A DNA stretch of 11,228 nucleotides from Candidatus Micrarchaeota archaeon (GTDB lineage: Archaea > B1Sed10-29 > B47-G15), in contig QMVG01000014.1 in NCBI GenBank assembly GCA_003660975.1, positions 1 through 11,228 of the forward strand, read 5' to 3'. The notes under the pieces are model-generated. The model saw only the letters and a list, made by a program, of their open reading frames with translations. It was not told the DNA's origin and searched no databases. Both the position numbers and the translations under genes were made by a program. This document shows, in pieces, positions 28 through 10,188 of this stretch (positions within the stretch are counted from its first letter, which is position 1; every line of letters starts with the position of its first letter).

Positions 28-455
28 ATTTCAATCCCTTATTCCTCAGGTCTAAACCTGGAAGAGTATGTAGTTGAAAACAGCCCCTTAGTCATTTCAA
101 TCCCTTATTCCTCAGGTCTAAACCGGAAGTAACCTCCGTTGTCACAGATAAGAAAACATCATTTCAATCCCTTATTCCTCAGGTCTAAACCGTGTGTGCG
201 TGCGTGTACATTTTCGGCGCACATACCATTTCAATCCCTTATTCCTCAGGTCTAAACCTCGATCATAGACTTGTACTGAGCCTTGGCTTGCTCATTTCAA
301 TCCCTTATTCCTCAGGTCTAAACTCGGCCAAAGTCAAGGAGCTGGAAGCAAAAACCTAAATTTCAATCCCTTATTCCTCAGGTCTAAACGCCTTCTCATC
401 TCCTGAGAGCACTCTACATACACCAATTTCAATCCCTTATTCCTCAGGTCTAAAC
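28..455 (-). CRISPR. CRISPR array, leader-proximal end; 7 repeats and 6 full spacers, probably continuing left of the window
   Basis: Identical 30-bp repeat ATTTCAATCCCTTATTCCTCAGGTCTAAAC at 28, 94, 161, 228, 294, 360 and 426, separated by unique 36-37 bp spacers; 1-27 is probably a partial spacer. The minus-strand form GTTTAGACCTGAGGAATAAGGGATTGAAAT ends in ATTGAAAN, typical of Cas6-processed type I-B/III repeats. Confidence 0.98.
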
Positions 456-700
456 CCATTTAAGTATGAGAACCTCTTATTCTTCTTTTCAAAGAGCACT
501 TCGGGACTTTTGATCCCGAATAAAATGTGTTCAGGAGTCCAAGCCTGTGAGATAAAAATTTAGACTTAAACCCGATTGTTGTCAACCCCCCAGGGATTCT
601 GCACTACCAGAGGTAGACACATAAAAATATGATCAGACAAACTTTTGGTAAGTTCTTGTGCTTCAATTCTAATAGACTTTTTTCAGAAAAAGTTTTCCGA
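456..700 (-). promoter_or_regulatory. CRISPR leader with sigma70-like promoter
   Basis: AT-rich and non-coding. Minus-strand TTGACA (585-580)-17 bp-TAAATT (562-557) points at the array. An imperfect dyad TGTCAACC...GGTAGACA (580-619) resembles the GTCGACC..TAGTG..GGTCGAC motif I recall from type I-B leaders. The right boundary is approximate. Confidence 0.75.
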
Positions 701-718
701 ATGCCTTAAGACGGGGAC

Positions 719-747
719 TTGACATTCCAAACTCGACCGCATATATT
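719..747 (+). promoter_or_regulatory. sigma70 promoter of the HTH-rep transcript
   Basis: TTGACA (719-724), 17-bp spacer, TATATT (742-747); GAGG RBS at 771-774 before the ATG at 780. Confidence 0.75.
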
Positions 748-779
748 AATAGCAACCATCTTTGCATTGCGAGGCTATT

Positions 780-1130
780 ATGGGGCTCGTAATCGGGAGA
801 AGCAACGCCATTTTAGGATATATCCTCCAACACGGGGAGACGGGAGTCGAAGCTGGCGAGATTGCGGAGGCTTTAGGGTTGAAGCCGAACTATGTCCGAG
901 CTGTCTTAGTCAGCCTCCGTGACCGGGGCGCTGTGCGCAAGGTGGGGAAGCGCTGGGTGCCTACCGAGGTCGGAATGAGGGAGGTGAAGGGGTTAGGGGA
1001 TATTGAAAGATTTAAGAAGGATAGTTCTAAGCTCTCTTGGGTCTTCTGGTTAGGTGTAGCCGTTTTCGTACTCATGGTGCTTTCCTCAAAGGATAAAGAG
1101 GAGGAAGAAAAGAGGGGGACTCATTCGTGA
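780..1130 (+). CDS. Winged-helix DNA-binding protein with C-terminal transmembrane helix
   Basis: AGEIAEALGLKPNYVRAVLVSLRDRGAVRKVGKRW is wHTH-like; hydrophobic segment LSWVFWLGVAVFVLMVL. Start moved from 762 to ATG 780 because of the RBS and promoter position. Confidence 0.75.
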   Translation: MGLVIGRSNAILGYILQHGETGVEAGEIAEALGLKPNYVRAVLVSLRDRGAVRKVGKRWVPTEVGMREVKGLGDIERFKKDSSKLSWVFWLGVAVFVLMVLSSKDKEEEEKRGTHS

Positions 1131-1181
1131 GCCCCCCGGAAGGAGGCACAAAACTTGTGCCTGCCCCCAGCTACGCACCTG
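1107..1181 (-). ncRNA. Putative antisense (countertranscript) RNA, about 75 nt
   Basis: Minus-strand promoter TTGCGC (1216-1211)-17 bp-TATTTT (1193-1188); internal hairpin AGGCACAA/TTGTGCCT (1144-1162); terminator hairpin 1114-1137 followed on the minus strand by TCTTTTC. Ends are approximate. Confidence 0.55.
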
Positions 1182-1218
1182 TCTCTAAAAATACACAAGA
1201 TTGGGGGCGAGCGCAAGT

Positions 1219-1256
1219 GCCTCCTTCCGGAAATGGTGGAAGGAGGCTTTCTTGTT
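1219..1256 (+). terminator. Conditional terminator/SD-sequestering hairpin (attenuator)
   Basis: Perfect 10-bp stem GCCTCCTTCC (1219-1228)/GGAAGGAGGC (1238-1247) followed by TTTCTTGTT. The 3' arm contains the SD AAGGAGG. It is mutually exclusive with the perfect 14-bp pairing 1136-1149/1217-1230. Confidence 0.7.
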
Positions 1257-2085
1257 GCAGGTCAAGAGCTACGAAAGATTAAATCAAGAGGTCCTCAGAA
1301 GAAGCGAAGCTCGACAGTACCGCCTCTGGTTGTTGCTCCGGGCTCTGGACCTCGAAGGGAGGGGGTGGATTAACTATAAAGAAGCTCAAAAAGCTTTCCT
1401 TGCCCTCGGCCTTTCCCGGCGGTCCTTCAGGGATGTGCTTCGGAAAGGGGAAAGCCTTTGGTGGACCCGGGGGTCGAATAGGATCTTCTATGCTTCCTTA
1501 GGAAAGGTTTGTTCCCGTCTACGGGTATTACCGGGACGACCTATTGTAATACCTCTCGATTCCCTTAGGAAGCTTTCGACCTTTAAGGGGGTTCTGTACG
1601 CCTCCTTTTTCACAAGGGAAAGGACCATCAGTCGGGCCCGGTTGATGGAGTTATGGGGAGTTTCCAGGACAACCCTTCGGCGTTGGGAGAGGGCTACTGG
1701 CATTAGAATTCAGCAGAATTATGCTCGTTCGTCCAAGCCGTTCTCGGCGGGAAGGTCTTCTGGTAGACGGCTTATTGTAGGTTCCGAGGAGGAAAACGGG
1801 GGGCCTTACTGGGAGGTTGTTCTGGATAGGAAGCGGTATTTAGCGTGGCAGATTCCGAATTCTTACATCTATTTAGGGACGGAGTTCGCCTACGCACCCT
1901 ATGGCCTTGCTCGAAAGGTGAGGAAGAGGCTCACACCTCCTGAAGGTGGCGGGGGGTACCTGAGGCTCTACTTCCGGAGGCCGAGGGATGCGTACAGGTA
2001 TCTTAGGAGGCAAGGAGAGGGTGTATACCTCTTCGATAGAAAGGCCCCGTGGGGGCGTCTGTGGGTACATCTGTCTTTAGCATAG
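1255..2085 (+). CDS. Putative HTH-containing replication initiator (Rep-like), very basic
   Basis: HTH-like ISRARLMELWGVSRTTLRRWE followed by QQNY and WQIPNSY; Arg-rich. Start moved from 1201 to the in-frame TTG at 1255 (or 1252) after SD AAGGAGG 1240-1246. Rep function is inferred from the leader architecture. Confidence 0.5.
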   Translation: MQVKSYERLNQEVLRRSEARQYRLWLLLRALDLEGRGWINYKEAQKAFLALGLSRRSFRDVLRKGESLWWTRGSNRIFYASLGKVCSRLRVLPGRPIVIPLDSLRKLSTFKGVLYASFFTRERTISRARLMELWGVSRTTLRRWERATGIRIQQNYARSSKPFSAGRSSGRRLIVGSEEENGGPYWEVVLDRKRYLAWQIPNSYIYLGTEFAYAPYGLARKVRKRLTPPEGGGGYLRLYFRRPRDAYRYLRRQGEGVYLFDRKAPWGRLWVHLSLA

Positions 2086-2210
2086 GTGGCAGATTTTGTG
2101 CCCCCTAGAGGGTGGTGGTGCAAAGAGGGAACAGAATACAGAAATGAGAAATTCTCTAACTACCTTGGTATAGAATCGGGATCGTATTCAGAAAACCTCT
2201 AGGTATTGAG

Positions 2211-2354
2211 TTGCAGCTCTACTTTAGTGGTTTATGCACGTCCGGGTTCAGAAGCAAGGGTTCTGGGTGCAAGCTCTATCTTGCCGAAAGTTACCGAACG
2301 GATGGCAGGGTTAAGCAGAGGAAGATTTACCTGGGAACTCTTCCAGGGAATTGA
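2211..2354 (+). pseudogene. Micro-ORF or frameshifted remnant with an IS1634-N-terminus-like beta-strand DNA-binding motif
   Basis: Frame 2211-2354 encodes ...KLYLAESYRTDGRVKQRKIYLG...; ATG 2234 (MHVRVQKQG) joins this frame if one base is removed. It is below the ORF-track cutoff. Confidence 0.45.
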
Positions 2355-2380
2355 CGTAGGGCTTCGATCGCTCCAGCGTC

Positions 2381-2713
2381 TCAGACATATTCACTCCTTT
2401 CTTCTTTTTCTATCCTCTCTACCGAGCATCCGTCCTCAAGGCACCTCTCGCAGACCCTAAGCGCAACGTCCCTGGACGAAGCTTTAACCTCCACAGGAAA
2501 GCGCACATCCCCTATCCTAACCCACACGATGAACTCCCCGTCGTCCCACGAAAGGCCATTTTCTTCCTTCACCCTTTCCTTGATCCTCTTTATCCTGTAC
2601 AAAGCATCCTGAACCTCGAAAAAAATCTGGGTAAGGGGCTTCCTCTTCTTTCCTACATACCTTCCGTTTACCTCCGAAAGAAGGTGGTTTGCTAGGATTT
2701 CCGTTGTGGTCAC
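2381..2713 (-). CDS. Hypothetical protein (110 aa)
   Basis: The GTG start overlaps the upstream stop (GTGA); last gene of the ATPase operon. Confidence 0.7.
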   Translation of the reverse strand: MTTTEILANHLLSEVNGRYVGKKRKPLTQIFFEVQDALYRIKRIKERVKEENGLSWDDGEFIVWVRIGDVRFPVEVKASSRDVALRVCERCLEDGCSVERIEKEERSEYV

Positions 2714-2943
2714 GACTTCCTCCTTAAAATCTCCCTTAGGTACCTTTCTGTATTAGGTCTTATGGCCTCCACGGCCTTCAGGACCCTTTCCCTATCCCCG
2801 GGAAGGAAATCCTTGGAAGACGCCCACCTGTCGAAGGCCGTCTTCATATCTCCCCCGAACCTTCCCCAATAGGAAAGGAAGCTTTCGGCCTGGTGCAGGA
2901 CGTCTTCAAAACGGCTTGATTTAGCCTGCTTTTCAACCCCCAT
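2710..2943 (-). CDS. Hypothetical protein (77 aa)
   Basis: Overlaps the ATPase end by 11 nt and the next gene by 4 nt, consistent with a translationally coupled operon. Confidence 0.7.
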   Translation of the reverse strand: MGVEKQAKSSRFEDVLHQAESFLSYWGRFGGDMKTAFDRWASSKDFLPGDRERVLKAVEAIRPNTERYLREILRRKS

Positions 2944-4033
2944 GTTTGAGCCAGTTGATTACGGTAGCCTTGCTCACTCCCAGCCTTTTCGCAATCTTCC
3001 CATAAGAAAGTCCCGCATCTCTCCAGGCCTTCGCCTGCCTCTTCTTTTCCTCCTTCGAAGCGGAAGGAGGTCTTTGAGCAGGGGACGATATCCCTTGGGA
3101 GTAAGCTCGGCTAAGCTCCTCACTCCAATACGAAGGAAGAGGAGTCTCCAGAGGACCTTCAAAATGAACCTCTGGAGACCAGACATAACACCATCCCCTC
3201 TTATCTCCTGTCCTCTCCTGGAAGAAATCCCTGGCCCTCTTTAAAACTTCTTTGAGCTCCGGTCTCTCAAACTTGACCTCCATAGCCCCCGGCTCTTTGA
3301 ACAAAAACAGGTTGGCATACCCCACAATATTCTTGTCCAGGTGCCTTGCCTCGTGAGCCACGAACAGTATGGAGTACCCTCTTTGCCGGGCAAGACCCAA
3401 AGCCCTGGACATCTCCTGAATGCTCTCATCAAAGCTGCTCTTCCTTGCGTGATAGAGCAGATAGGCCTCGTCCACCAAGACGATGGAGTCCGGGGGTACC
3501 TCATCAAAGTGCCTGGCGAGACCGATCCACTCTGGCAAGAGAGCCTTCTTCTCCTCTGGGAATCCCAGGACATAAGGGGTCATCTTCCACCTATAAAGCT
3601 CTAAAAGCATGTGCCCCGTGGCGGACTTACCCGACCCGGGTGCTCCCAAAATCAAACCCCTTGCGAACTCTGGCATGATCTTAAACCACTGGGAAGCCGA
3701 TAGCTCTGAGGGAGCCCCTTTTCTAGGTTCAGGTAAGGGCTGTGACTGAGCGGCCACTTGCGCTTCCAGCTCCTCTATTTGACTTCGGAGCCAGTCGTTC
3801 TCCTGTTGGAGCCGGGAGACCTCCTGCTGGAGCTCCTGCTTCTCAGACCATATTTTCAGGTAAGATAACGCAAGCTGGACTAGCTTCTGCCGAAGATACT
3901 GGATCTCCCGCTGGGCTTGCTGGAGGGCTTGGGTAAAGCTCACCGCCGTCTCAGCCATAGGAACGCCTAACTTCTCCCCCAACAAACCCCAGCCGAAAAT
4001 CTTGGCCACCTTTACCAGGGGATGATCTGGCAT
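2933..4033 (-). CDS. Coiled-coil + P-loop ATPase (Zot/FtsK-HerA-like) + C-terminal HTH
   Basis: Gln/Glu-rich heptad region, Walker A GAPGSGKS, Walker B VLVDEA, ARQRG motif, and C-terminal HTH GLSYGKIAKRLGVSKATVINWL. Start moved to ATG 4033 behind SD AGGAGGTGA. Confidence 0.8.
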   Translation of the reverse strand: MPDHPLVKVAKIFGWGLLGEKLGVPMAETAVSFTQALQQAQREIQYLRQKLVQLALSYLKIWSEKQELQQEVSRLQQENDWLRSQIEELEAQVAAQSQPLPEPRKGAPSELSASQWFKIMPEFARGLILGAPGSGKSATGHMLLELYRWKMTPYVLGFPEEKKALLPEWIGLARHFDEVPPDSIVLVDEAYLLYHARKSSFDESIQEMSRALGLARQRGYSILFVAHEARHLDKNIVGYANLFLFKEPGAMEVKFERPELKEVLKRARDFFQERTGDKRGWCYVWSPEVHFEGPLETPLPSYWSEELSRAYSQGISSPAQRPPSASKEEKKRQAKAWRDAGLSYGKIAKRLGVSKATVINWLKHGG

Positions 4034-4047
4034 AGTCACCTCCTCTC

Positions 4048-4118
4048 GGTCAAAGAGCTGACCGGCCCCGGTCAAAAATCCGAAAGTTGACCCTTTTTGA
4101 CCGATTTGACCCGGTCAA
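4048..4118. repeat. Cluster of seven TGACC/GGTCA motifs (putative protein-binding array)
   Basis: GGTCAA at 4048, 4070 and 4113; CTGACC at 4058; TTGACC at 4087, 4097 and 4106, in direct and inverted orientation just upstream of the ATPase RBS. Confidence 0.7.
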
Positions 4119-4164
4119 GGACACATATCTATTGAGATTTGCGTTAAACATGACTCGGGATTTC

Positions 4165-4242
4165 GGGTATCGGTTGGTGGGTATGCGAAGTTGCCGAAGG
4201 CAATTTGGGTGAGCGAAGCGAACCGCATACTTGCTTTTATAC
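4165..4242 (-). other. attC-like site C (degenerate, terminal)
   Basis: Minus strand GTATAAA-AGCAA-GTATGCG...CTCACCCAAATTGCCTTCGGCAACTT-CGCATAC-CCACCAACC-GATACCC. R'' has AAC>AAA and R' reads GAT at the GTT position. Confidence 0.7.
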
Positions 4243-4261
4243 GCCTGTGCCGTGCCAGCTT

Positions 4262-5890
4262 TTATTCTTTCCATCTCCTTTTTATCTCAATACCTGGTAG
4301 GTATTTCAATAAAATCACATTCAAGTTGTTTCCTGAATATTCCCATACGTATCTGTAATCACCCTCAACTTTTGTTAGCTTCTCCTTGTTTCTTGAATCC
4401 CATGCTATGATTAGAGATGTTTGTTCTGGAACATGGTCATGATCCGAGTAATTTTCTAAAATGTATTCAACTTCTACAGCTTGGAATAACTTTTTCTCTG
4501 AATGCTCTTTTTCCTGATATTCCGCAATGATATCTATTCCCTTCTGAGCGGTGTGTTCTAAAGTTTTGAAATAATAGAAAGGCAAAGCATTTAAGGTCTC
4601 CAATTTCCAAAGCAATGCTCTGACATCCTGCTCATTTTCAGGTTCTTTATGTAATAATTCTTCTTTGTAAAAGACCCAACGATCCTTCCTCATTAATTCA
4701 TCCTTTCTTTGGTTAAGTGTCTCTGCTAAATCCTTTTTCTTTAAATCTCGGCGATACTTAACCCATTCTTTGTAGTCTTTGGTTTCCATTACTTTTCTAA
4801 AAGCTTCCCGGAGAGCAGCGGTGAATAGCGGTTCTTTTACACCATCAGAAACTCTGCTTCTTGCGATATCTGTCTCAACATCATCGCATTCTACAACGAA
4901 CCTGCAGAACTTGTAATATAAGTCAAATCCTTGGGGTTTATATCGGTTAAAATCTAAGTTAAAGTATGGTATTCCTTTCCATGCGTAAGTCAAGCCAACA
5001 CCCTTGCTCTCTAAAATACCATAATCACTCATCCCGAATTCACTCGTCTTTAATGCATATCCTCCCTTTAAAATCACTGTAACCTTATTCCCTTTTTTGT
5101 CTTCTTTAGTTATTTCTATAGGAGGTTCTATAACTCCTATTTTTTGACCTTCTACATGATCCCCTTCCTTTCGTATCCAAGGAAATCCAATTTTTAACTC
5201 CTCTCCATCTGGGATAGCAGGTGTTTTTATTATGATCTTAGGGAAGCCCTCGCGTAGTCTTTCTGGTCGGGTGTATCCTATTAGAGTTCTGAAGTAGAGA
5301 TACTTCTTTAGTTTCTCTGCATCTTCATATTCTGGGTATTTAATTCCACCGTCATACCCACAAACTCTAATAATAGTTCCGTGAGGGAAATCTAATGCTT
5401 CAGGTGGTAACTTATAAATAAGAGGTTTAGGCATTTCAGGTTTCTCTTTTTTAAGGAGTTTACCTATTGGATCGTGAACTTCCACTTTATGGCATTCTCC
5501 TTCATATGTTTTTGTTTCGATTTCAAGCTTTTTACATAAATACATGAGTTTTGAACCAAGACCTTTGAACCCAAACTCATCTGCTTGAATTCCAGCAACC
5601 CCACTGTATGCTAAATTTAGAAACCTATCTAAGCGTCCTTGTTTTTCTGGCTCCTTTTTACCTGTATAATTCATTCCTATGCCATCATCTTCAAAAATAA
5701 ATGACCAACCATATGTTCCATCATAGAAAATGGTTATTTCAAAACAGGTTGCTTTTACTTCTTTAGCACACGAGTTAGATAAGGCTTCTCTTATTATATC
5801 CAGTGGGTTAGCCCTATTTTGAACAACTTGCTTTATTATGGCTATTCCAATTGATATTTCATGCTCCTTAGGCTCATACACCTCGTTCAT
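4262..5890 (-). CDS. GHKL (HSP90/MutL/MORC-like) ATPase with C-terminal putative PD-(D/E)xK-like nuclease domain; cassette 3
   Basis: Bergerat motifs IIREALSNS, EDDGIGM, GFKGLGSK and HGT; C-terminal EPENEQDV..GIDII..VEVEY..DHDH..IIAWD; SD AAGGAGG. Confidence 0.8.
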   Translation of the reverse strand: MNEVYEPKEHEISIGIAIIKQVVQNRANPLDIIREALSNSCAKEVKATCFEITIFYDGTYGWSFIFEDDGIGMNYTGKKEPEKQGRLDRFLNLAYSGVAGIQADEFGFKGLGSKLMYLCKKLEIETKTYEGECHKVEVHDPIGKLLKKEKPEMPKPLIYKLPPEALDFPHGTIIRVCGYDGGIKYPEYEDAEKLKKYLYFRTLIGYTRPERLREGFPKIIIKTPAIPDGEELKIGFPWIRKEGDHVEGQKIGVIEPPIEITKEDKKGNKVTVILKGGYALKTSEFGMSDYGILESKGVGLTYAWKGIPYFNLDFNRYKPQGFDLYYKFCRFVVECDDVETDIARSRVSDGVKEPLFTAALREAFRKVMETKDYKEWVKYRRDLKKKDLAETLNQRKDELMRKDRWVFYKEELLHKEPENEQDVRALLWKLETLNALPFYYFKTLEHTAQKGIDIIAEYQEKEHSEKKLFQAVEVEYILENYSDHDHVPEQTSLIIAWDSRNKEKLTKVEGDYRYVWEYSGNNLNVILLKYLPGIEIKRRWKE

Positions 5891-5919
5891 ATTTCATCCT
5901 CCTTGTAGCACGGCATGGC

Positions 5920-6001
5920 GTATAACGTTCCGAGTGTATCTGAAGTCATACGAAGCAGGGTTTGGGCGGAGCGAAGCGTAGCCGTATATCCGCTGTTATA
6001 C
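5920..6001 (-). other. attC-like site B
   Basis: Minus strand R'' GTATAAC (6001-5995) ... R' GTTATAC (5926-5920); shares the GCTTCGCTC..CCCAAA..ACTTC core with sites A and C. Confidence 0.85.
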
Positions 6002-6025
6002 GCCGTGCCGTAATCCTTGGTTCAT

Positions 6026-6904
6026 TTATTCCTCCGATAACTTTGAAATTCTATCAAATTCCTCCCGTAACTTTTTATATACTTCATCTAATTCCTCTGC
6101 TTTACCAGCTAAATTTTTAAAGTGGGTTTTGTAAAATACTCGCCATACTTCATCAACTTCTCTGAACCGTTGTGAGAGCCTCAAGATGTCATTTTTTACT
6201 TTTTCCGCCTTTTCTGAAAGTTTCTTTGCATGAACTCCAGCTTTTATGAGTTCGACTTTGTGCGATAGGGTTAGTGGCGATACTACTTGGACTCCATTTT
6301 TTGTATATTCGCGAAGCAATCCAAAATATTCATTTATTAGGAACCAATAAACACCCTCTGACGGAATGAAGGCAAAGGCAAAATCTGCAGAGCCTTTTTC
6401 AGGACAGACATAATCGCTAGCTATTTTATCCAAATGACCTTTTACATCTCTGAGAAATTGCCTTTTGAACTTCTCTTTTTCCTGGGGGTCATCACTTTCC
6501 ATAATCTTCCTGTAATTCTCTAATGGAAATTTGGAGTCTATACAAATAATGCCAACCGTTGATTTAATATAAGCATCTGGGGTTTTACCCTCAAGAACCT
6601 TTTCTCTAATCCCAAACATATCTGGAGGGAGTTGATCAGAAAGGATAGTTTCGAGAGCTATCTCACCGAATGCTCCCCTTTCAGCAGGCACTCTAAGCAT
6701 TTGCTCAATAGATTTATGTGTTTCTTTTATTTCTTTAGCATGGGTAGCCAATTCCCCTACTTTATCACTTAATCCAGATTCTTTCCATACCCTAAGTATG
6801 GCAGTTTCTATATCTTGCGGTTTAACTTTTACCTTTCTGAGTGAAAGGATGATTAATATGCCTAAGAGTACTATGATTGCTCCAAGTAAAATTTCTATTA
6901 TCAT
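6026..6904 (-). CDS. rmuC: RmuC-family protein (N-terminal TM anchor, PD-(D/E)xK domain); cassette 2
   Basis: RGAFGEIALETIL, PDAYI, IDSKFPL, FIPSEG and VSPLTL are RmuC hallmark motifs; hydrophobic N-terminus; SD AGGAGG. Confidence 0.88.
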   Translation of the reverse strand: MIIEILLGAIIVLLGILIILSLRKVKVKPQDIETAILRVWKESGLSDKVGELATHAKEIKETHKSIEQMLRVPAERGAFGEIALETILSDQLPPDMFGIREKVLEGKTPDAYIKSTVGIICIDSKFPLENYRKIMESDDPQEKEKFKRQFLRDVKGHLDKIASDYVCPEKGSADFAFAFIPSEGVYWFLINEYFGLLREYTKNGVQVVSPLTLSHKVELIKAGVHAKKLSEKAEKVKNDILRLSQRFREVDEVWRVFYKTHFKNLAGKAEELDEVYKKLREEFDRISKLSEE

Positions 6905-6939
6905 ATTCCCTCCTGTTTCATGATTCTTTTAGGCATGGC

Positions 6940-7025
6940 GGATAACGTCCCGGCGGGTATCTGAAGTCGCCGAAGGCGATTTGGGTGAGGGCTGAAAGCC
7001 TGAACCAGATACCCGCCTGTTAGGC
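6940..7025 (-). other. attC-like site A
   Basis: Minus strand GCCTAAC-A-GGCGGGTATCTG...CAGATACCCGCC-GGGAC-GTTATCC: a perfect 12-bp inner stem between RYYYAAC and GTT cores. Confidence 0.88.
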
Positions 7026-7092
7026 GTGGGCAATAGCCCCGAAATGAGCGAAAGCGAACGGAGAGTTGGTTGCGGCATAATTTTTAGGGAAT

Positions 7093-7365
7093 TCATTCTT
7101 TCACCATTTTATGCTTATTTGGATCATATAATTCATACGTTCCATCTTCATGGAGCAATAAAAACGGCTCGACATGAGGCCAATGTCTTCGTGCTGGTGG
7201 TAAATTTACCACTAAAGCCATTAAATGCTGGTATATAGTATCATCTTTCCAGTTACCTTTATTTCTAACTCTTCTGAAGAGTTCACTAAAAGTTACCACC
7301 TCTCCAAGTTCTAAACTATTTCTTATAGCTTCTTTACATGATTCACCAAACTTACCTTTTCCCAT
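7093..7365 (-). CDS. Small hypothetical protein, wHTH-like (resembles DUF7669 from memory); cassette 1
   Basis: 90-aa ORF with strong SD AAGGAGG; it fills the cassette between GTTAGGC (7420) and attC A; pattern TFSEL..TIYQHL..VN...GTYELY. Confidence 0.8.
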   Translation of the reverse strand: MGKGKFGESCKEAIRNSLELGEVVTFSELFRRVRNKGNWKDDTIYQHLMALVVNLPPARRHWPHVEPFLLLHEDGTYELYDPNKHKMVKE

Positions 7366-7413
7366 TTTACCTTACCTCCTTCTTTGATATTTTTCAACGC
7401 CGCAACCGATTAC

Positions 7414-7468
7414 GCCTAACTACAGGATAAACGAAGTACTTCGTTTTGCGAAGTACTTCGTTTATTCT
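7414..7468 (-). other. attI-like cassette insertion site with adjacent double palindrome
   Basis: Minus strand GTTTATC-CTGTA-G|TTAGGC (L, 5 bp, R). It is preceded by 17-bp inverted arms 7427-7443/7449-7465 built from two copies of the palindrome CGAAGTACTTCG. It lacks the attC family core. Confidence 0.6.
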
Positions 7469-7629
7469 CAAATGAAGGAGGCTTCCCTCGCCATTTCCAC
7501 CCCGATCATTGAACGAAAAAACGTAAAGCTTACACCTTTACACCCCCTCAGCATTTCGAGTATATCATACCACCCCTTCCGTACCAAATATGATAGGGCC
7601 TTACACTTTTCTATATCTTCCCACATCAT
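7468..7629 (-). CDS. 53-aa ORF, possibly a truncated HxlR/ArsR-like wHTH
   Basis: ATG 7629 overlaps the AAA stop (ATGA); MMWEDIEKCKALSYLVRKGWYDILEMLRGCKGVSFTFFRSMIGVEMAREASFI ends at the edge of the double palindrome. Not in the ORF track. Confidence 0.45.
   Translation of the reverse strand: MMWEDIEKCKALSYLVRKGWYDILEMLRGCKGVSFTFFRSMIGVEMAREASFI
7559..7587 (-). promoter_or_regulatory. Candidate Pc-like promoter for the cassette array
   Basis: TTGGTA (7587-7582)-17 bp-TATACT (7564-7559) with a TGn extension, about 140 bp upstream of the first cassette; it lies inside the 53-aa ORF. Confidence 0.45.
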
Positions 7630-8594
7630 AACGACACCCCCTGTCGCTTCATAACTTCAACTACCACTTCGGCCTTCTCCTTTTCGCCGTTCGCCATCCT
7701 TGCTATGCTTACACACTGCCTTACATCGGACTTGTTCCCGTACATGTTCCAAACGGAAAGGGCTATGAATTCGGCTACATCCTCCGGGACCCCTTCTCTT
7801 TCGAGGACCGACTTAGAAACCTTTAGAAACTCGTCCCTCGAATAGGGTTCGAACCTTATCTTGATGAACCGTGAAAGGAGGTCCCGTGGTAGGGAATTCA
7901 CCTTTATCCCCGCCGCGAATACCTTCGTGTAAAGTACGGCATAGCGGGTTTTCCCCCACTTCGTCTCGCTTATCCTTCCCGTAGCCATAAGGCTATTGAG
8001 GACGCCTAAATTATCCCCGTGTAGGCGATCTATCTCGTCTATGAGTAGATACTTGGGCTGGAGCGCAAACAGGACCTCGTTAAGCCCTGCACTCGTCATG
8101 GTGGGGGCAAGCAGGTAGTAGCTTTCGGGAAGGCGGGAAAGTTCCATCAGAAACAGCGTCTTTGCCGAAGCCGGAGGCCCTACCAATAGCACATGACAGG
8201 GACGCTCCGACTCTATCGCGTAGCGCAGGACGGTCTTCACGTTCTTATGTCCAACGATTATCTCGAAAAGATCGTTGGGAACCTCGCTTTCGGGTTGTAC
8301 TTCTATCCCCGAAGCCTCTATCTCGTCTATCACCTCCCTTATAAGGTCCCTATCCCGAAGGACGTACGAAGTGCTCGAACGACTTGCGTACACTATGTCA
8401 AGTATCCTTTTGGACACCATATTGTTCAACACTTGGGGTGGGGTGTGGACTTCGTACCACTCCCACCCCAAGTAATTGTGTCCCTTTTCTTCGGCCTCCT
8501 TCCGGCCCTTCTCCTCGACTTCGAGGGCCTCCTTAAGTGTTTCCACCCAATCGGGATTTTCGGCAAGTAACAGCTTAAGTTCCAACTTCCTCAT
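7626..8594 (-). CDS. AAA+ ATPase (RuvB/MoxR-like core) with N-terminal wHTH-like domain
   Basis: Walker A GPPASAKT, Walker B LLIDEID, Arg finger LLSRF, sensor-2 DVRQ; IIVGH N-linker; SD GGGGAGTGA. Confidence 0.85.
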   Translation of the reverse strand: MRKLELKLLLAENPDWVETLKEALEVEEKGRKEAEEKGHNYLGWEWYEVHTPPQVLNNMVSKRILDIVYASRSSTSYVLRDRDLIREVIDEIEASGIEVQPESEVPNDLFEIIVGHKNVKTVLRYAIESERPCHVLLVGPPASAKTLFLMELSRLPESYYLLAPTMTSAGLNEVLFALQPKYLLIDEIDRLHGDNLGVLNSLMATGRISETKWGKTRYAVLYTKVFAAGIKVNSLPRDLLSRFIKIRFEPYSRDEFLKVSKSVLEREGVPEDVAEFIALSVWNMYGNKSDVRQCVSIARMANGEKEKAEVVVEVMKRQGVSL

Positions 8595-8650
8595 ATCACT
8601 CCCCTAAAAAGGAAGCACTGAAGCACCAAAGCACTTTAAGGAAGCGAGGA

Positions 8651-9202
8651 TTATTCATCATCTACGCCTAGAACAAGAACAGGGATATCTATCTCACTTT
8701 CCCCTCTGTGAACTAGGTCGGCTTTAACCTGCTCGAAGTAAGAAACACCTGTGGACATCTGTCTTGCCATGTTAAGCATAGGGACAATTTCAACACCTGA
8801 ATCTATGAGTCCAGAGTTATGGAATATCGTCATTTTAGCAAGGATATTATAGACCATAAAAGCATACTTGCCAAATTGGATCTCCACGCCTAAGCCGTTT
8901 TTGAAAGCATCCATCTCCCGAGGGCCTTCATGGATCCTCCCTATTTCTGGGATTTCGACTCTAAGAATAACCCTTCCTTTTTCCCATCCTCTCTTTCTAA
9001 ATTCTTCTTCAAATCTTTCGTTTAGAGCTTTAGGAGAATAGAGAACTCTTCCCATCATTGTCTTCTCCTTACTGATCTTAGTCTTAAGTTTCGAGGCTTT
9101 TATAGCTTCTATTATTTCCTCTATCTCTTGGTATTCTTGGGGGTGATGTTCCCTTATGAATTCCTCTCCTCCTCTGTGCGAATACTTCGCTACAATTTTC
9201 AT
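8651..9202 (-). CDS. Type II restriction endonuclease, BglII/BstYI family
   Basis: YSH..G N-terminus, LN..F...GW, and D-x8-E-I-Q-F-G-K with Gln in place of the catalytic Lys, as in BglII. Start moved to ATG 9202 (ATGA overlap with the MTase stop, SD GGAGG). Confidence 0.88.
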   Translation of the reverse strand: MKIVAKYSHRGGEEFIREHHPQEYQEIEEIIEAIKASKLKTKISKEKTMMGRVLYSPKALNERFEEEFRKRGWEKGRVILRVEIPEIGRIHEGPREMDAFKNGLGVEIQFGKYAFMVYNILAKMTIFHNSGLIDSGVEIVPMLNMARQMSTGVSYFEQVKADLVHRGESEIDIPVLVLGVDDE

Positions 9203-10188
9203 GTCCGCCTCCACTCAAGGGGTATTTGGGCCACTTTCTCTGTTCCTTTTGGCTCATACTTTGGTTTGCCTAAAGGCCTTCTTCTAAGTGTCCCGTTTAA
9301 GGCTTGGATTACTCTTTCATGTGCTATCTTCACATAAACTTCCTCTTTGTCCACTCCTATAGCTCTCCGATCGTGGAGCAGGGCGGCAATAAGAGAAGAC
9401 CCTACCCCCATGAAGGGATCAAAAACTATATCATCCGGATTTGTTAATGCTAAGATCAATCTCTCTACAAGTTCTATAGGAAATTGAGAGGGATGGATTG
9501 TTTTCTCAGGATGGTTTGCTTTGACATTAGGTATATCCCAAACTTCTTCTTCCCATTCTTTAAGAAGAAAATCCCAGATATCTCCTGGGTTCTTCCCAAG
9601 GGGATTCGCGGAAGGTTCCCCTTTGTGCGGTCCTTTGTAATGCCTCTTTCCTGGATATTTCTGGGGAATCCTCACCGGATCAAGATTAAATACATATTCA
9701 TCACCCTTTGTAAACCAAAGGATAACTTCATAACGACCAGAAAACCTTCTTTTGGCATGAAGTCCATGCTCAAATCTCCAGATGATTCTATTACGAAGCT
9801 TTAAACCGAGCTTTTCCTTTAGGATTTGGTAAAAAAAGACATCGAGAGGAAAAACTTCCCCTGAGTTCACGTGATTACCTACTTCCCAGCATAGACTTCC
9901 TTCAGGCTTAAGTATCCTCACACACTCACGTAAGACATTAGTTTGCCATTCAAGATATCTCCGAAACTCTATCTTTTTTTCGTAAGGCTTCCCAATGTTA
10001 TAAGGGGGTGAGCTTACTACAAGCTGAATGCTTTCGTTCGGAATTGTCCGCGTAAAAGCGAGAGTATCGTTGCATGAAAGGAGTACATCGAACTCAGGAA
10101 CGAAGTATAAGCTTTGTATAATCTTTTTATTCCTTCCCAATATTTCTGGAAATTCAGCCTGTAACTTTCTGCGTCTTTTTTCTTCCAT
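9199..10188 (-). CDS. Beta-class amino DNA methyltransferase (probably N4-cytosine)
   Basis: Motif IV SSPPY lies N-terminal, with HPSQFP and motif I DPFMGVGS C-terminal (beta order); coupled to the REase. Confidence 0.93.
   Translation of the reverse strand: MEEKRRRKLQAEFPEILGRNKKIIQSLYFVPEFDVLLSCNDTLAFTRTIPNESIQLVVSSPPYNIGKPYEKKIEFRRYLEWQTNVLRECVRILKPEGSLCWEVGNHVNSGEVFPLDVFFYQILKEKLGLKLRNRIIWRFEHGLHAKRRFSGRYEVILWFTKGDEYVFNLDPVRIPQKYPGKRHYKGPHKGEPSANPLGKNPGDIWDFLLKEWEEEVWDIPNVKANHPEKTIHPSQFPIELVERLILALTNPDDIVFDPFMGVGSSLIAALLHDRRAIGVDKEEVYVKIAHERVIQALNGTLRRRPLGKPKYEPKGTEKVAQIPLEWRRT

Follow-up and report, generated by a model that had tools for sequence, protein, structure and literature searches.

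We analysed an 11,228-bp stretch of DNA (hereafter the window), which is the entire contig C14 of a metagenome-assembled genome (MAG) of Candidatus Micrarchaeota archaeon (assembly GCA_003660975.1, contig QMVG01000014.1), and found that the block 4171-7419 is a three-cassette array with genuine attC-type recombination sites. The array lies between two genes of a GC-rich integrative element, in the intergenic stretch that separates an AAA_5 ATPase gene from a gene for a P-loop ATPase with a C-terminal helix-turn-helix (P-loop/HTH). The explanation that we favour, with somewhat better than even confidence, is that the block is a group of clustered attC sites that has no integron integrase (CALIN) which would have arisen by insertion of an attC cassette into a GWT site, the left junction thereafter acting like an attI site that is served in trans.

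All three cassettes are low in GC, hold a single open reading frame (ORF) each and are each closed by a structured attC (Table 1). An attC has R''/R' and L''/L' boxes that make up an imperfect palindrome, with its crossover at the G|TT of R'. Sites attC1, attC2 and attC3 are imperfect palindromes of 83-87 nt, all in the same orientation, and show the anatomy of attCs: the L stems are 12 nt long and there is an inner hairpin. Each R'' box complements the first letters of the cassette that it closes, attC2 showing a single mismatch, and the start of cassette 1 (G|TTAGGCG) is exactly complementary to the R'' of attC1 (CGCCTAAC, 7027-7020). The bit scores of the three sites come from a covariance model that was built from 8 attC sites of this MAG. 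RNAalifold gave no useful structure on the top-strand alignment, and the pairing was then set by hand on the 8 bottom strands. The consensus structure of these strands has a 12-bp L stem and an 8-bp inner hairpin, in which 85% of the cells pair (28-44% with slid partners); both sides are changed at 11/20 pairs, and the covariation score was reached in 0/500 shuffles. The 542-aa protein of cassette 3 had no match in PADLOC, NCBIfam or PDB.

Table 1. Coordinates of the features discussed (window positions unless another contig or locus is named)
Feature	Position	Strand	Evidence and remarks
Tyrosine recombinase, XerA-like, cut by contig end	10703..11227	-	PF00589; NF040815 99.3 bits
142-aa ORF	between tyrosine recombinase and restriction-modification pair	-	ORF list
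N6/N4 methylase and BglII-like endonuclease	8651-10188	-	~41% GC
AAA_5 / RuvB-like ATPase gene, upstream of insertion site	7626..8594	-	domain search; GC-rich (~52%)
Palindrome beside left junction	7424..7468	.	inverted repeat 7424-7443 / 7449-7468, 20 nt, 95% complementary, 5-nt loop
Left dyad arm TTCGTTTATC, part of palindrome	7426..7435	-	join computed
Left crossover G7420|T7419 (G|TTAGGCG), start of cassette 1	7413..7420	-	R'' complementarity; branch point of public contigs
Cassette 1 ORF, 90 aa, weak DUF7669 match	7093..7365	-	E 0.0019, under Pfam cut-off; cassette 7419 to 6946
attC1	6942..7028	-	60.3 bits (covariance model); fold z -4.1; crossover 6946|6945
Cassette 2 ORF, 292 aa, RmuC family	6026..6904	-	PF02646 133.7 bits; weak RTasRmuC match; cassette 6945 to 5926
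attC2	5922..6007	-	73.4 bits; 17-nt R stem; crossover 5926|5925
Cassette 3 ORF, 542 aa	4262..5890	-	sub-threshold HATPase_c_3 match only; cassette 5925 to 4171
attC3, hybrid terminal site	4167..4249	-	77.1 bits; crossover G4171|A4170; in-register alignment
Right dyad arm GATACCCGAA, then near-repeat ATCCCGA	4162..4171	-	join computed
Repeated GGTCAA/TTGACC motifs upstream of 366/380-aa gene	4047..4121	.	direct-repeat scan
P-loop ATPase with C-terminal HTH, backbone gene	2933..4075	-	likely start ATG 4033 (366 aa; 380-aa ORF)
20-mer copies	C1:138209-138228(-), C1:140856-140875(+), C2:117462-117481(-), C3:72612-72631(-)	as marked	word match
20-mer copies	C3:73530-73549(+), C7:14978-14997(-), C16:1451-1470(+), L184:4467-4486	as marked	word match

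On the minus strand the four junctions read G7420|TTAGGCG, G6946|TTATCCGCC, G5926|TTATACGCC and G4171|ATACCCG. Up to its crossover attC3 stands in register with seven other attCs, and it departs from the five canonical sites aligned with it (attC1, attC2, both sites of contig C118 and that of contig C15) only in showing G|AT for their G|TT. The right junction triplet G4171-A4170-T4169 is thus a GWT, as in a secondary site. GWT is given as the consensus for genome insertion by IntI1, with a minimal site of 9+9 nt, in bioRxiv 10.1101/2022.09.11.507474.

Part of the region 2900-8600 is contained in 20 public metagenome runs, of which four were examined (X3-X6) by aligning short Logan contigs to the window at 90% likeness; X1 and X2 (shares 0.93 and 0.91) were among those left out. 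Branch points of the public contigs fall precisely on 4171 and 7420, and a cassette-3 contig of X6 terminates exactly at 4171, which together with the register of attC3 bears out the GWT-type right end at 4171|4170 proposed in the initial annotation. Backbone contigs end at 4200 (X4, X6) and 4204 (X3), about 30 nt into attC3, and these stops probably reflect the k-1 overlap at an assembly branch point.

Three arrangements were present at one and the same backbone nucleotide. In arrangement (a) a contig of X6 spans 7360-8004 as in the window, plus 22 letters. In arrangement (b) a contig of X4 (depth 5.6) and X5 (depth 17.2) runs over 5712-5926, then over 10 other letters, TATTGGATAA (window TACAGGATAA), and then from 7449 onward, which puts the 542-aa cassette first at the identical backbone position; the backbone of X4 and X5 is about 5% diverged, with a 25-nt deletion at 7582 and a single palindrome unit. 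Arrangement (c) is a 4464-nt backbone contig of X3 which has 3 differences in 1188 nt (7413-8600) and then, past the shared TTAGGCG, about 1050 nt unlike the window. The cassette-1 contig of X3 is identical to the window over 7068-7420 and ends with 15 unlike letters, both X3 contigs having a depth of 9-11. The X3 contigs are compatible with a further cassette lying between cassette 1 and the backbone, a reading that would link two separate contigs of similar depth.

Since the same backbone position has other first cassettes in other metagenomes, the left junction has been used by G|TT recombination more than once; the direction of each change (gain or loss) we infer. In X3, X4 and X6 alike the backbone contigs run into attC3, and the 542-aa cassette is therefore the constant, distal member of the array. 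Its depth was 22-138, against 3-17 for the backbone, and joints leading from about 5930 back to about 4186 place it behind another attC as well. Because it is far commoner than the backbone and occurs behind a different attC, this cassette resides mainly elsewhere. The bins of the attC family (5956-6146 and 6911-7101) reached a summed contig depth of 200-5800 in X3-X6, which are hydrothermal and marine sediment metagenomes, against 3-17 for the backbone; such cassettes must be present in very large numbers in some of the abundant members of these communities.

We propose the following course of events. A circular cassette with the 542-aa gene would have recombined through its attC with a non-attC GWT site (G|AT), 4 nt from the base of the palindrome that now lies beside the left junction. 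Such an insertion would leave the two hybrid junctions backbone-G|TT-cassette and attC3-G|AT-backbone, and the left one would keep serving as the point of cassette entry and exit in the manner of an attI, which would explain the different first cassettes at the same nucleotide in related elements. An IntI-type recombinase would act in trans, and is presumed to do so because none is encoded on the contig. The order of these events, the identity of the recombinase and any role of the palindrome, or of the dyad described below, are what we infer.

Several observations weigh against this explanation. The contiguity of the alleles rests on short Logan contigs at 90% likeness, and the extra cassette of X3 joins two separate contigs. 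The same alleles would be expected if an upstream cassette had the palindrome as its attC. No contig skipping 4171-7419, that is no empty allele, was seen in the 4/20 runs (X3-X6), where a missing joint or missing cover is not proof of absence; the reconstructed empty target therefore stays hypothetical. The right-hand CRGM motif of Escherichia coli attG hotspots (+6..+9) is absent, CGAA being found there. No IntI was found in the MAG (89.7% complete) or in the phylum sample, and the enzyme is assumed. The GC-rich backbone of C14 is unlike the main MAG contigs, which leaves its host assignment uncertain.

With regard to the enzyme, the recombinase of the contig is XerA-like, its NF040815 score having been obtained on a C-terminal fragment, and it matches the integron integrase model TIGR02249 in two pieces that skip model positions 177-240, the IntI-specific segment. 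In the MAG the best TIGR02249 match reached 77.8 bits (cut-off 265), and no match exceeded the cut-off in 31 phylum genomes (the MAG and 30 others). The best matches in the phylum, those of G010 and G005, were likewise in two pieces with the IntI-specific segment skipped. No intI carrying the IntI-specific domain stands beside the array, and no intI-linked attI was found, so the array falls short of a complete integron. The initial annotation had called the block an attC cassette array without adjacent intI, and the three structured attCs and the lack of any IntI over the cut-off agree with this.

The initial annotation had also joined the sequences outside the two outer crossovers and read the product as a symmetric, recombinase-type empty site. 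The letters of the join were confirmed: on the minus strand it runs 7435 to 7426 (TTCGTTTATC), 7425 to 7421 (CTGTA), G7420 and then A4170, while G4171 to A4162 is GATACCCGAA, and the 10-nt arms are 8/10 complementary around a 5-nt spacer. This dyad is statistically marginal (P ~0.05 in free register; 0.007 at spacer 5). Among 20,000 random window junctions, 4.8% had a 10-nt-arm dyad of at least 8/10 across the junction with a spacer of 0-10, and 0.7% had one with the spacer fixed at 5; when the true left flank was combined with random right flanks, 5.7% yielded a dyad this good. Moreover, the left arm is not free-standing, because it falls within the stronger 20-nt inverted repeat of 7424-7468. 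The proposed search for empty or differently loaded alleles recovered other first cassettes at the same position but no empty allele in the four runs.

The palindrome is the more conspicuous of the two structures. Its fold has an energy of -21.3 kcal/mol (shuffles -6.9 +/- 1.8; z = -7.9), and 0/200 shuffles were as good. It contains two exact copies of the 12-nt palindrome CGAAGTACTTCG (7432-7443 and 7449-7460), of which the window has no further copy, and its base is 4 nt from the left crossover. Its length differs among the alleles, with one 12-nt unit in X4 and X5 and two in the window, and the X6 contig carries its 22 further letters. The 10-5-10 dyad may contribute a weak symmetry of the simple-site kind, with no sign of a need for it.

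One reading is that the G|WT site next to the palindrome serves the archaeal integrative element as a dedicated platform for capture without intI, an attI analogue that would take up attC cassettes repeatedly by means of the element's XerA-like recombinase or an unrecognised archaeal enzyme; we regard it as unlikely. If true, such a platform would sit in a phylum with attC sites but with no canonical IntI detected (0/31 genomes). The initial annotation had similarly supposed a dedicated landing pad that accepts attC cassettes, and of this the recurrence of the left junction in X3-X5 stands, but nothing indicates that recognition concerns the dyad and not the GWT core together with the palindrome, or indeed any of these features.

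It is doubtful that the 10-5-10 dyad is the element's own resolution or attachment site for the XerA-like recombinase, doubling as a cassette landing pad in an intI-less proto-integron. The complementarity of the arms would suit it, as would the reuse of the site and the lack of IntI in the 31 genomes despite their attCs, and the recombinase lies 3.3 kb upstream of the site on the same strand, with four genes between, as one of only three tyrosine-recombinase loci in the MAG (one with internal stops). Yet the dyad is marginal and overlaps the stronger palindrome, its geometry is not the 11-6-11 of dif, and all junctions are classic IntI-type G|TT crossovers. In addition, five related metagenome loci have a recombinase near the P-loop/HTH gene (directly upstream of it in L012, L014, L022 and L024, about 3 kb upstream in L016), and none of the five has a dyad, a palindrome or an attC.

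We hold it equally doubtful that the palindrome 7424-7468 is the short degenerate attC of the AAA_5 gene ("cassette 0"), in which case ordinary attC x attC shuffling would explain the different cassettes after it, the array would have its true left end further upstream and the join would represent no empty site. To the eye, the palindrome's bottom strand has the order AAC, 4-nt spacer, 9-nt stem, AAGT, as in the attCs of the family; GGATAAACGAAGT closely matches GGGATAAAGGAAGT of contig C118, the allele series fits equally well, and the low-GC tract runs through the palindrome to about 7468. The profiles spoke otherwise: the attC hidden Markov model (HMM) gave 0.3 bits (E 5.6), an HMM of the 5' half gave 0.5-1.8 bits, and the covariance model gave 5.4 and 4.5 bits (E 4.7 and 8.6), compared with 60-77 for the true sites. 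As a candidate attC the palindrome was rejected as unsupported by these HMM and covariance-model profiles. Further, it lacks an R'' box that would complement an R', the GC content of the AAA_5 gene is about 52%, and the 56 nt between this gene and the next upstream gene hold no inverted repeat. No attC HMM match at E<=0.05 was found in 160 loci, which include 80 loci of AAA_5 homologues, and no such hairpin was seen in the DNA downstream of the AAA_5 homologues in L092 and L093, the two of the 80 that were read.

Very improbable, finally, is that the block came in by a route other than attC recombination (by homologous exchange, or as a transposon-like unit whose terminal inverted repeats would be imperfect and 10 bp long) or that its junctions are assembly artefacts at repeated attCs: a 20-mer that follows chromosomal terminal attCs, and is inverted upstream at two loci, hints at terminal-inverted-repeat units, and the depth of 200-5800 for the attC family invites chimeras, but the alleles vary exactly at the G|TT crossover and not at the arms, the window's flanks have neither the 20-mer nor a target duplication around 4162 or 7435, and contigs spanning the junctions should require real reads across 31-mers.

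The preferred explanation, a CALIN founded by insertion at a GWT site, can be placed among known systems as follows. With CALINs the array shares three attCs in one orientation, single-ORF cassettes and the lack of an intI on the contig, as judged with the covariance model derived from the MAG. According to PMC9668308, most archaeal integrons are CALINs, and IntI in trans can move their cassettes. The array differs from CALINs in that it lies inside a GC-rich integrative element and not in the chromosome, and in that its left boundary is nucleotide-exact with other first cassettes elsewhere. G|AT on the right and G|TT on the left are what is expected of single-strand exchange at a GWT site in an attC x attG insertion by IntI; the lack of CRGM, the archaeal host, the palindrome beside the site and the apparently repeated use are different, and the involvement of IntI is what we presume. 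The cassette of RSF1010 is an example of secondary-site insertion. Like an attI, the left junction has varying first cassettes before a constant distal 542-aa cassette, a G|TT crossover and, in the reconstruction, what may be inverted boxes around a short spacer; unlike an attI, it has no adjacent intI, its box symmetry is weak and no accessory binding repeats were identified there. With Xer/dif systems the element has in common an imperfect inverted repeat around a short centre and an XerA-like recombinase. The dif sites described in PMC2958812 have 11-bp arms and a 6-bp spacer. In contrast, the dyad of the array is 10-5-10, loses its complementarity when shifted to 11-6-11 (by hand), and the exchanges are of the attC type.

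Reports of integron cassettes in Archaea are only recent, and PMC9668308 presents most of these as clusters without an integrase, for which neither boundaries nor dynamics are known. What goes beyond the routine here is the combination of exact boundaries on an archaeal mobile element with natural alleles that show the reuse of a non-attI junction. With its nucleotide-exact boundaries, its GWT-type distal junction and its alleles with different first cassettes, the array is a concrete substrate for study, on which one can address by what means archaeal cassettes move when no IntI is close by, and whether sites other than attI can assume its function. The array further illustrates how cassettes of the chromosome (RmuC-type and unknown genes) come onto a mobile element, with potential for spread.

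The attC family of the array was also present on the MAG's chromosomal contigs C1, C2, C3, C7 and C15 (~40% GC) and on the small contig C118. A covariance-model search of the MAG gave 11 matches, 8 of them the training sites. The family was found in 4/30 other phylum genomes, most clearly in G020 with three consecutive sites, while one of the four genomes gave a weak match of 21.7 bits; counting the MAG itself, 5/31 phylum genomes have such sites. On C3, a short divergent attC-like site (C3:72712-72765) lies upstream of a lone HD-domain cassette, and the family HMM fits only its 3' half (E 0.09).

A conserved 20-mer, CCAACAATAAGTTAACAGAA, trails the terminal attC in the chromosomal cassette loci of the MAG (copies in Table 1). 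It mostly starts 5 nt past the crossover, with a different spacing at C2 and C7. An inverted copy lies upstream of the cassettes at C1 (2.6 kb away) and C3 (0.9 kb away), and at C1 the pair is flanked by a 10-nt direct repeat. Within the phylum sample the 20-mer is confined to G000 and G020, always beside attCs. The 20-mer may represent a landing site present in several copies, or else mark where a mobile unit ends. It was not found at the window's flanks.

Relatives of the backbone were sought in several collections. The flank DNA 7421-8600 had no match in 40 relatives, and the 380-aa protein had none in the 30 other phylum genomes. Neither of the two flank proteins nor a 30-nt flank word matched in viral contigs, and plasmids gave no match to the flank DNA or protein. 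Among 80 metagenome loci with homologues of the 380-aa protein (<=57% identity) there was no AAA_5 neighbour, attC, palindrome or dyad, and 80 genome loci with AAA_5 homologues had no attC, palindrome or dyad.

The MAG comprises 1.33 Mb in 130 contigs, and its archaeal identity is indicated by ribosomal protein S8e on contig C7. The genomes of its relatives are of 0.3-1.2 Mb. The host would be a small-genome, DPANN-like archaeon, although the assignment of C14 to it is not certain. The five largest MAG contigs are of 39.6-41.6% GC. Along the window GC is 35-41% in the cassette block and 50-56% in the flanks; in composition the block is therefore like the host chromosome, and it is the element around it that is foreign. 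Contigs C6, C11, C12, C17 and C20 of the MAG are of 48-54% GC, its main contigs being of ~40%, and judging by composition they may be either further mobile elements or binning contamination. Since these GC-deviant contigs may be contamination, what ties C14 to the host is chiefly the attC family that they share.

The gene order on the minus strand is recombinase, 142-aa ORF, methylase/endonuclease, AAA_5, 90-aa, 292-aa RmuC, 542-aa and P-loop/HTH, and about 6.6 kb of cargo (142-aa ORF, restriction-modification pair, AAA_5 gene and cassettes) lies between the recombinase and the P-loop/HTH gene. The restriction-modification pair, with the recombinase on one side and the AAA_5 gene on the other, seems to be a further cargo insertion in that interval. 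An Rfam search of the window gave no match, and a sigma-70 promoter and terminator scan of it was uninformative, such models being unsuited to an archaeon. A clustered regularly interspaced short palindromic repeat (CRISPR) array with 7 identical 30-nt repeats spaced by 66-67 nt was found at 28-455, and its repeat was absent from all other MAG contigs searched.

Some homologues of the P-loop/HTH protein carry the Pfam label of a Zot-type NTPase. The GGTCAA/TTGACC repeats upstream of its gene look like operator- or iteron-like sites of the backbone and are candidates for that role. In each of the relatives L012, L014, L022 and L024 a short iterated motif of its own, of the GTTCAA or GTTTAA type, lies upstream of the P-loop/HTH homologue, and from these comparisons the iterated motifs appear to co-vary with the protein.

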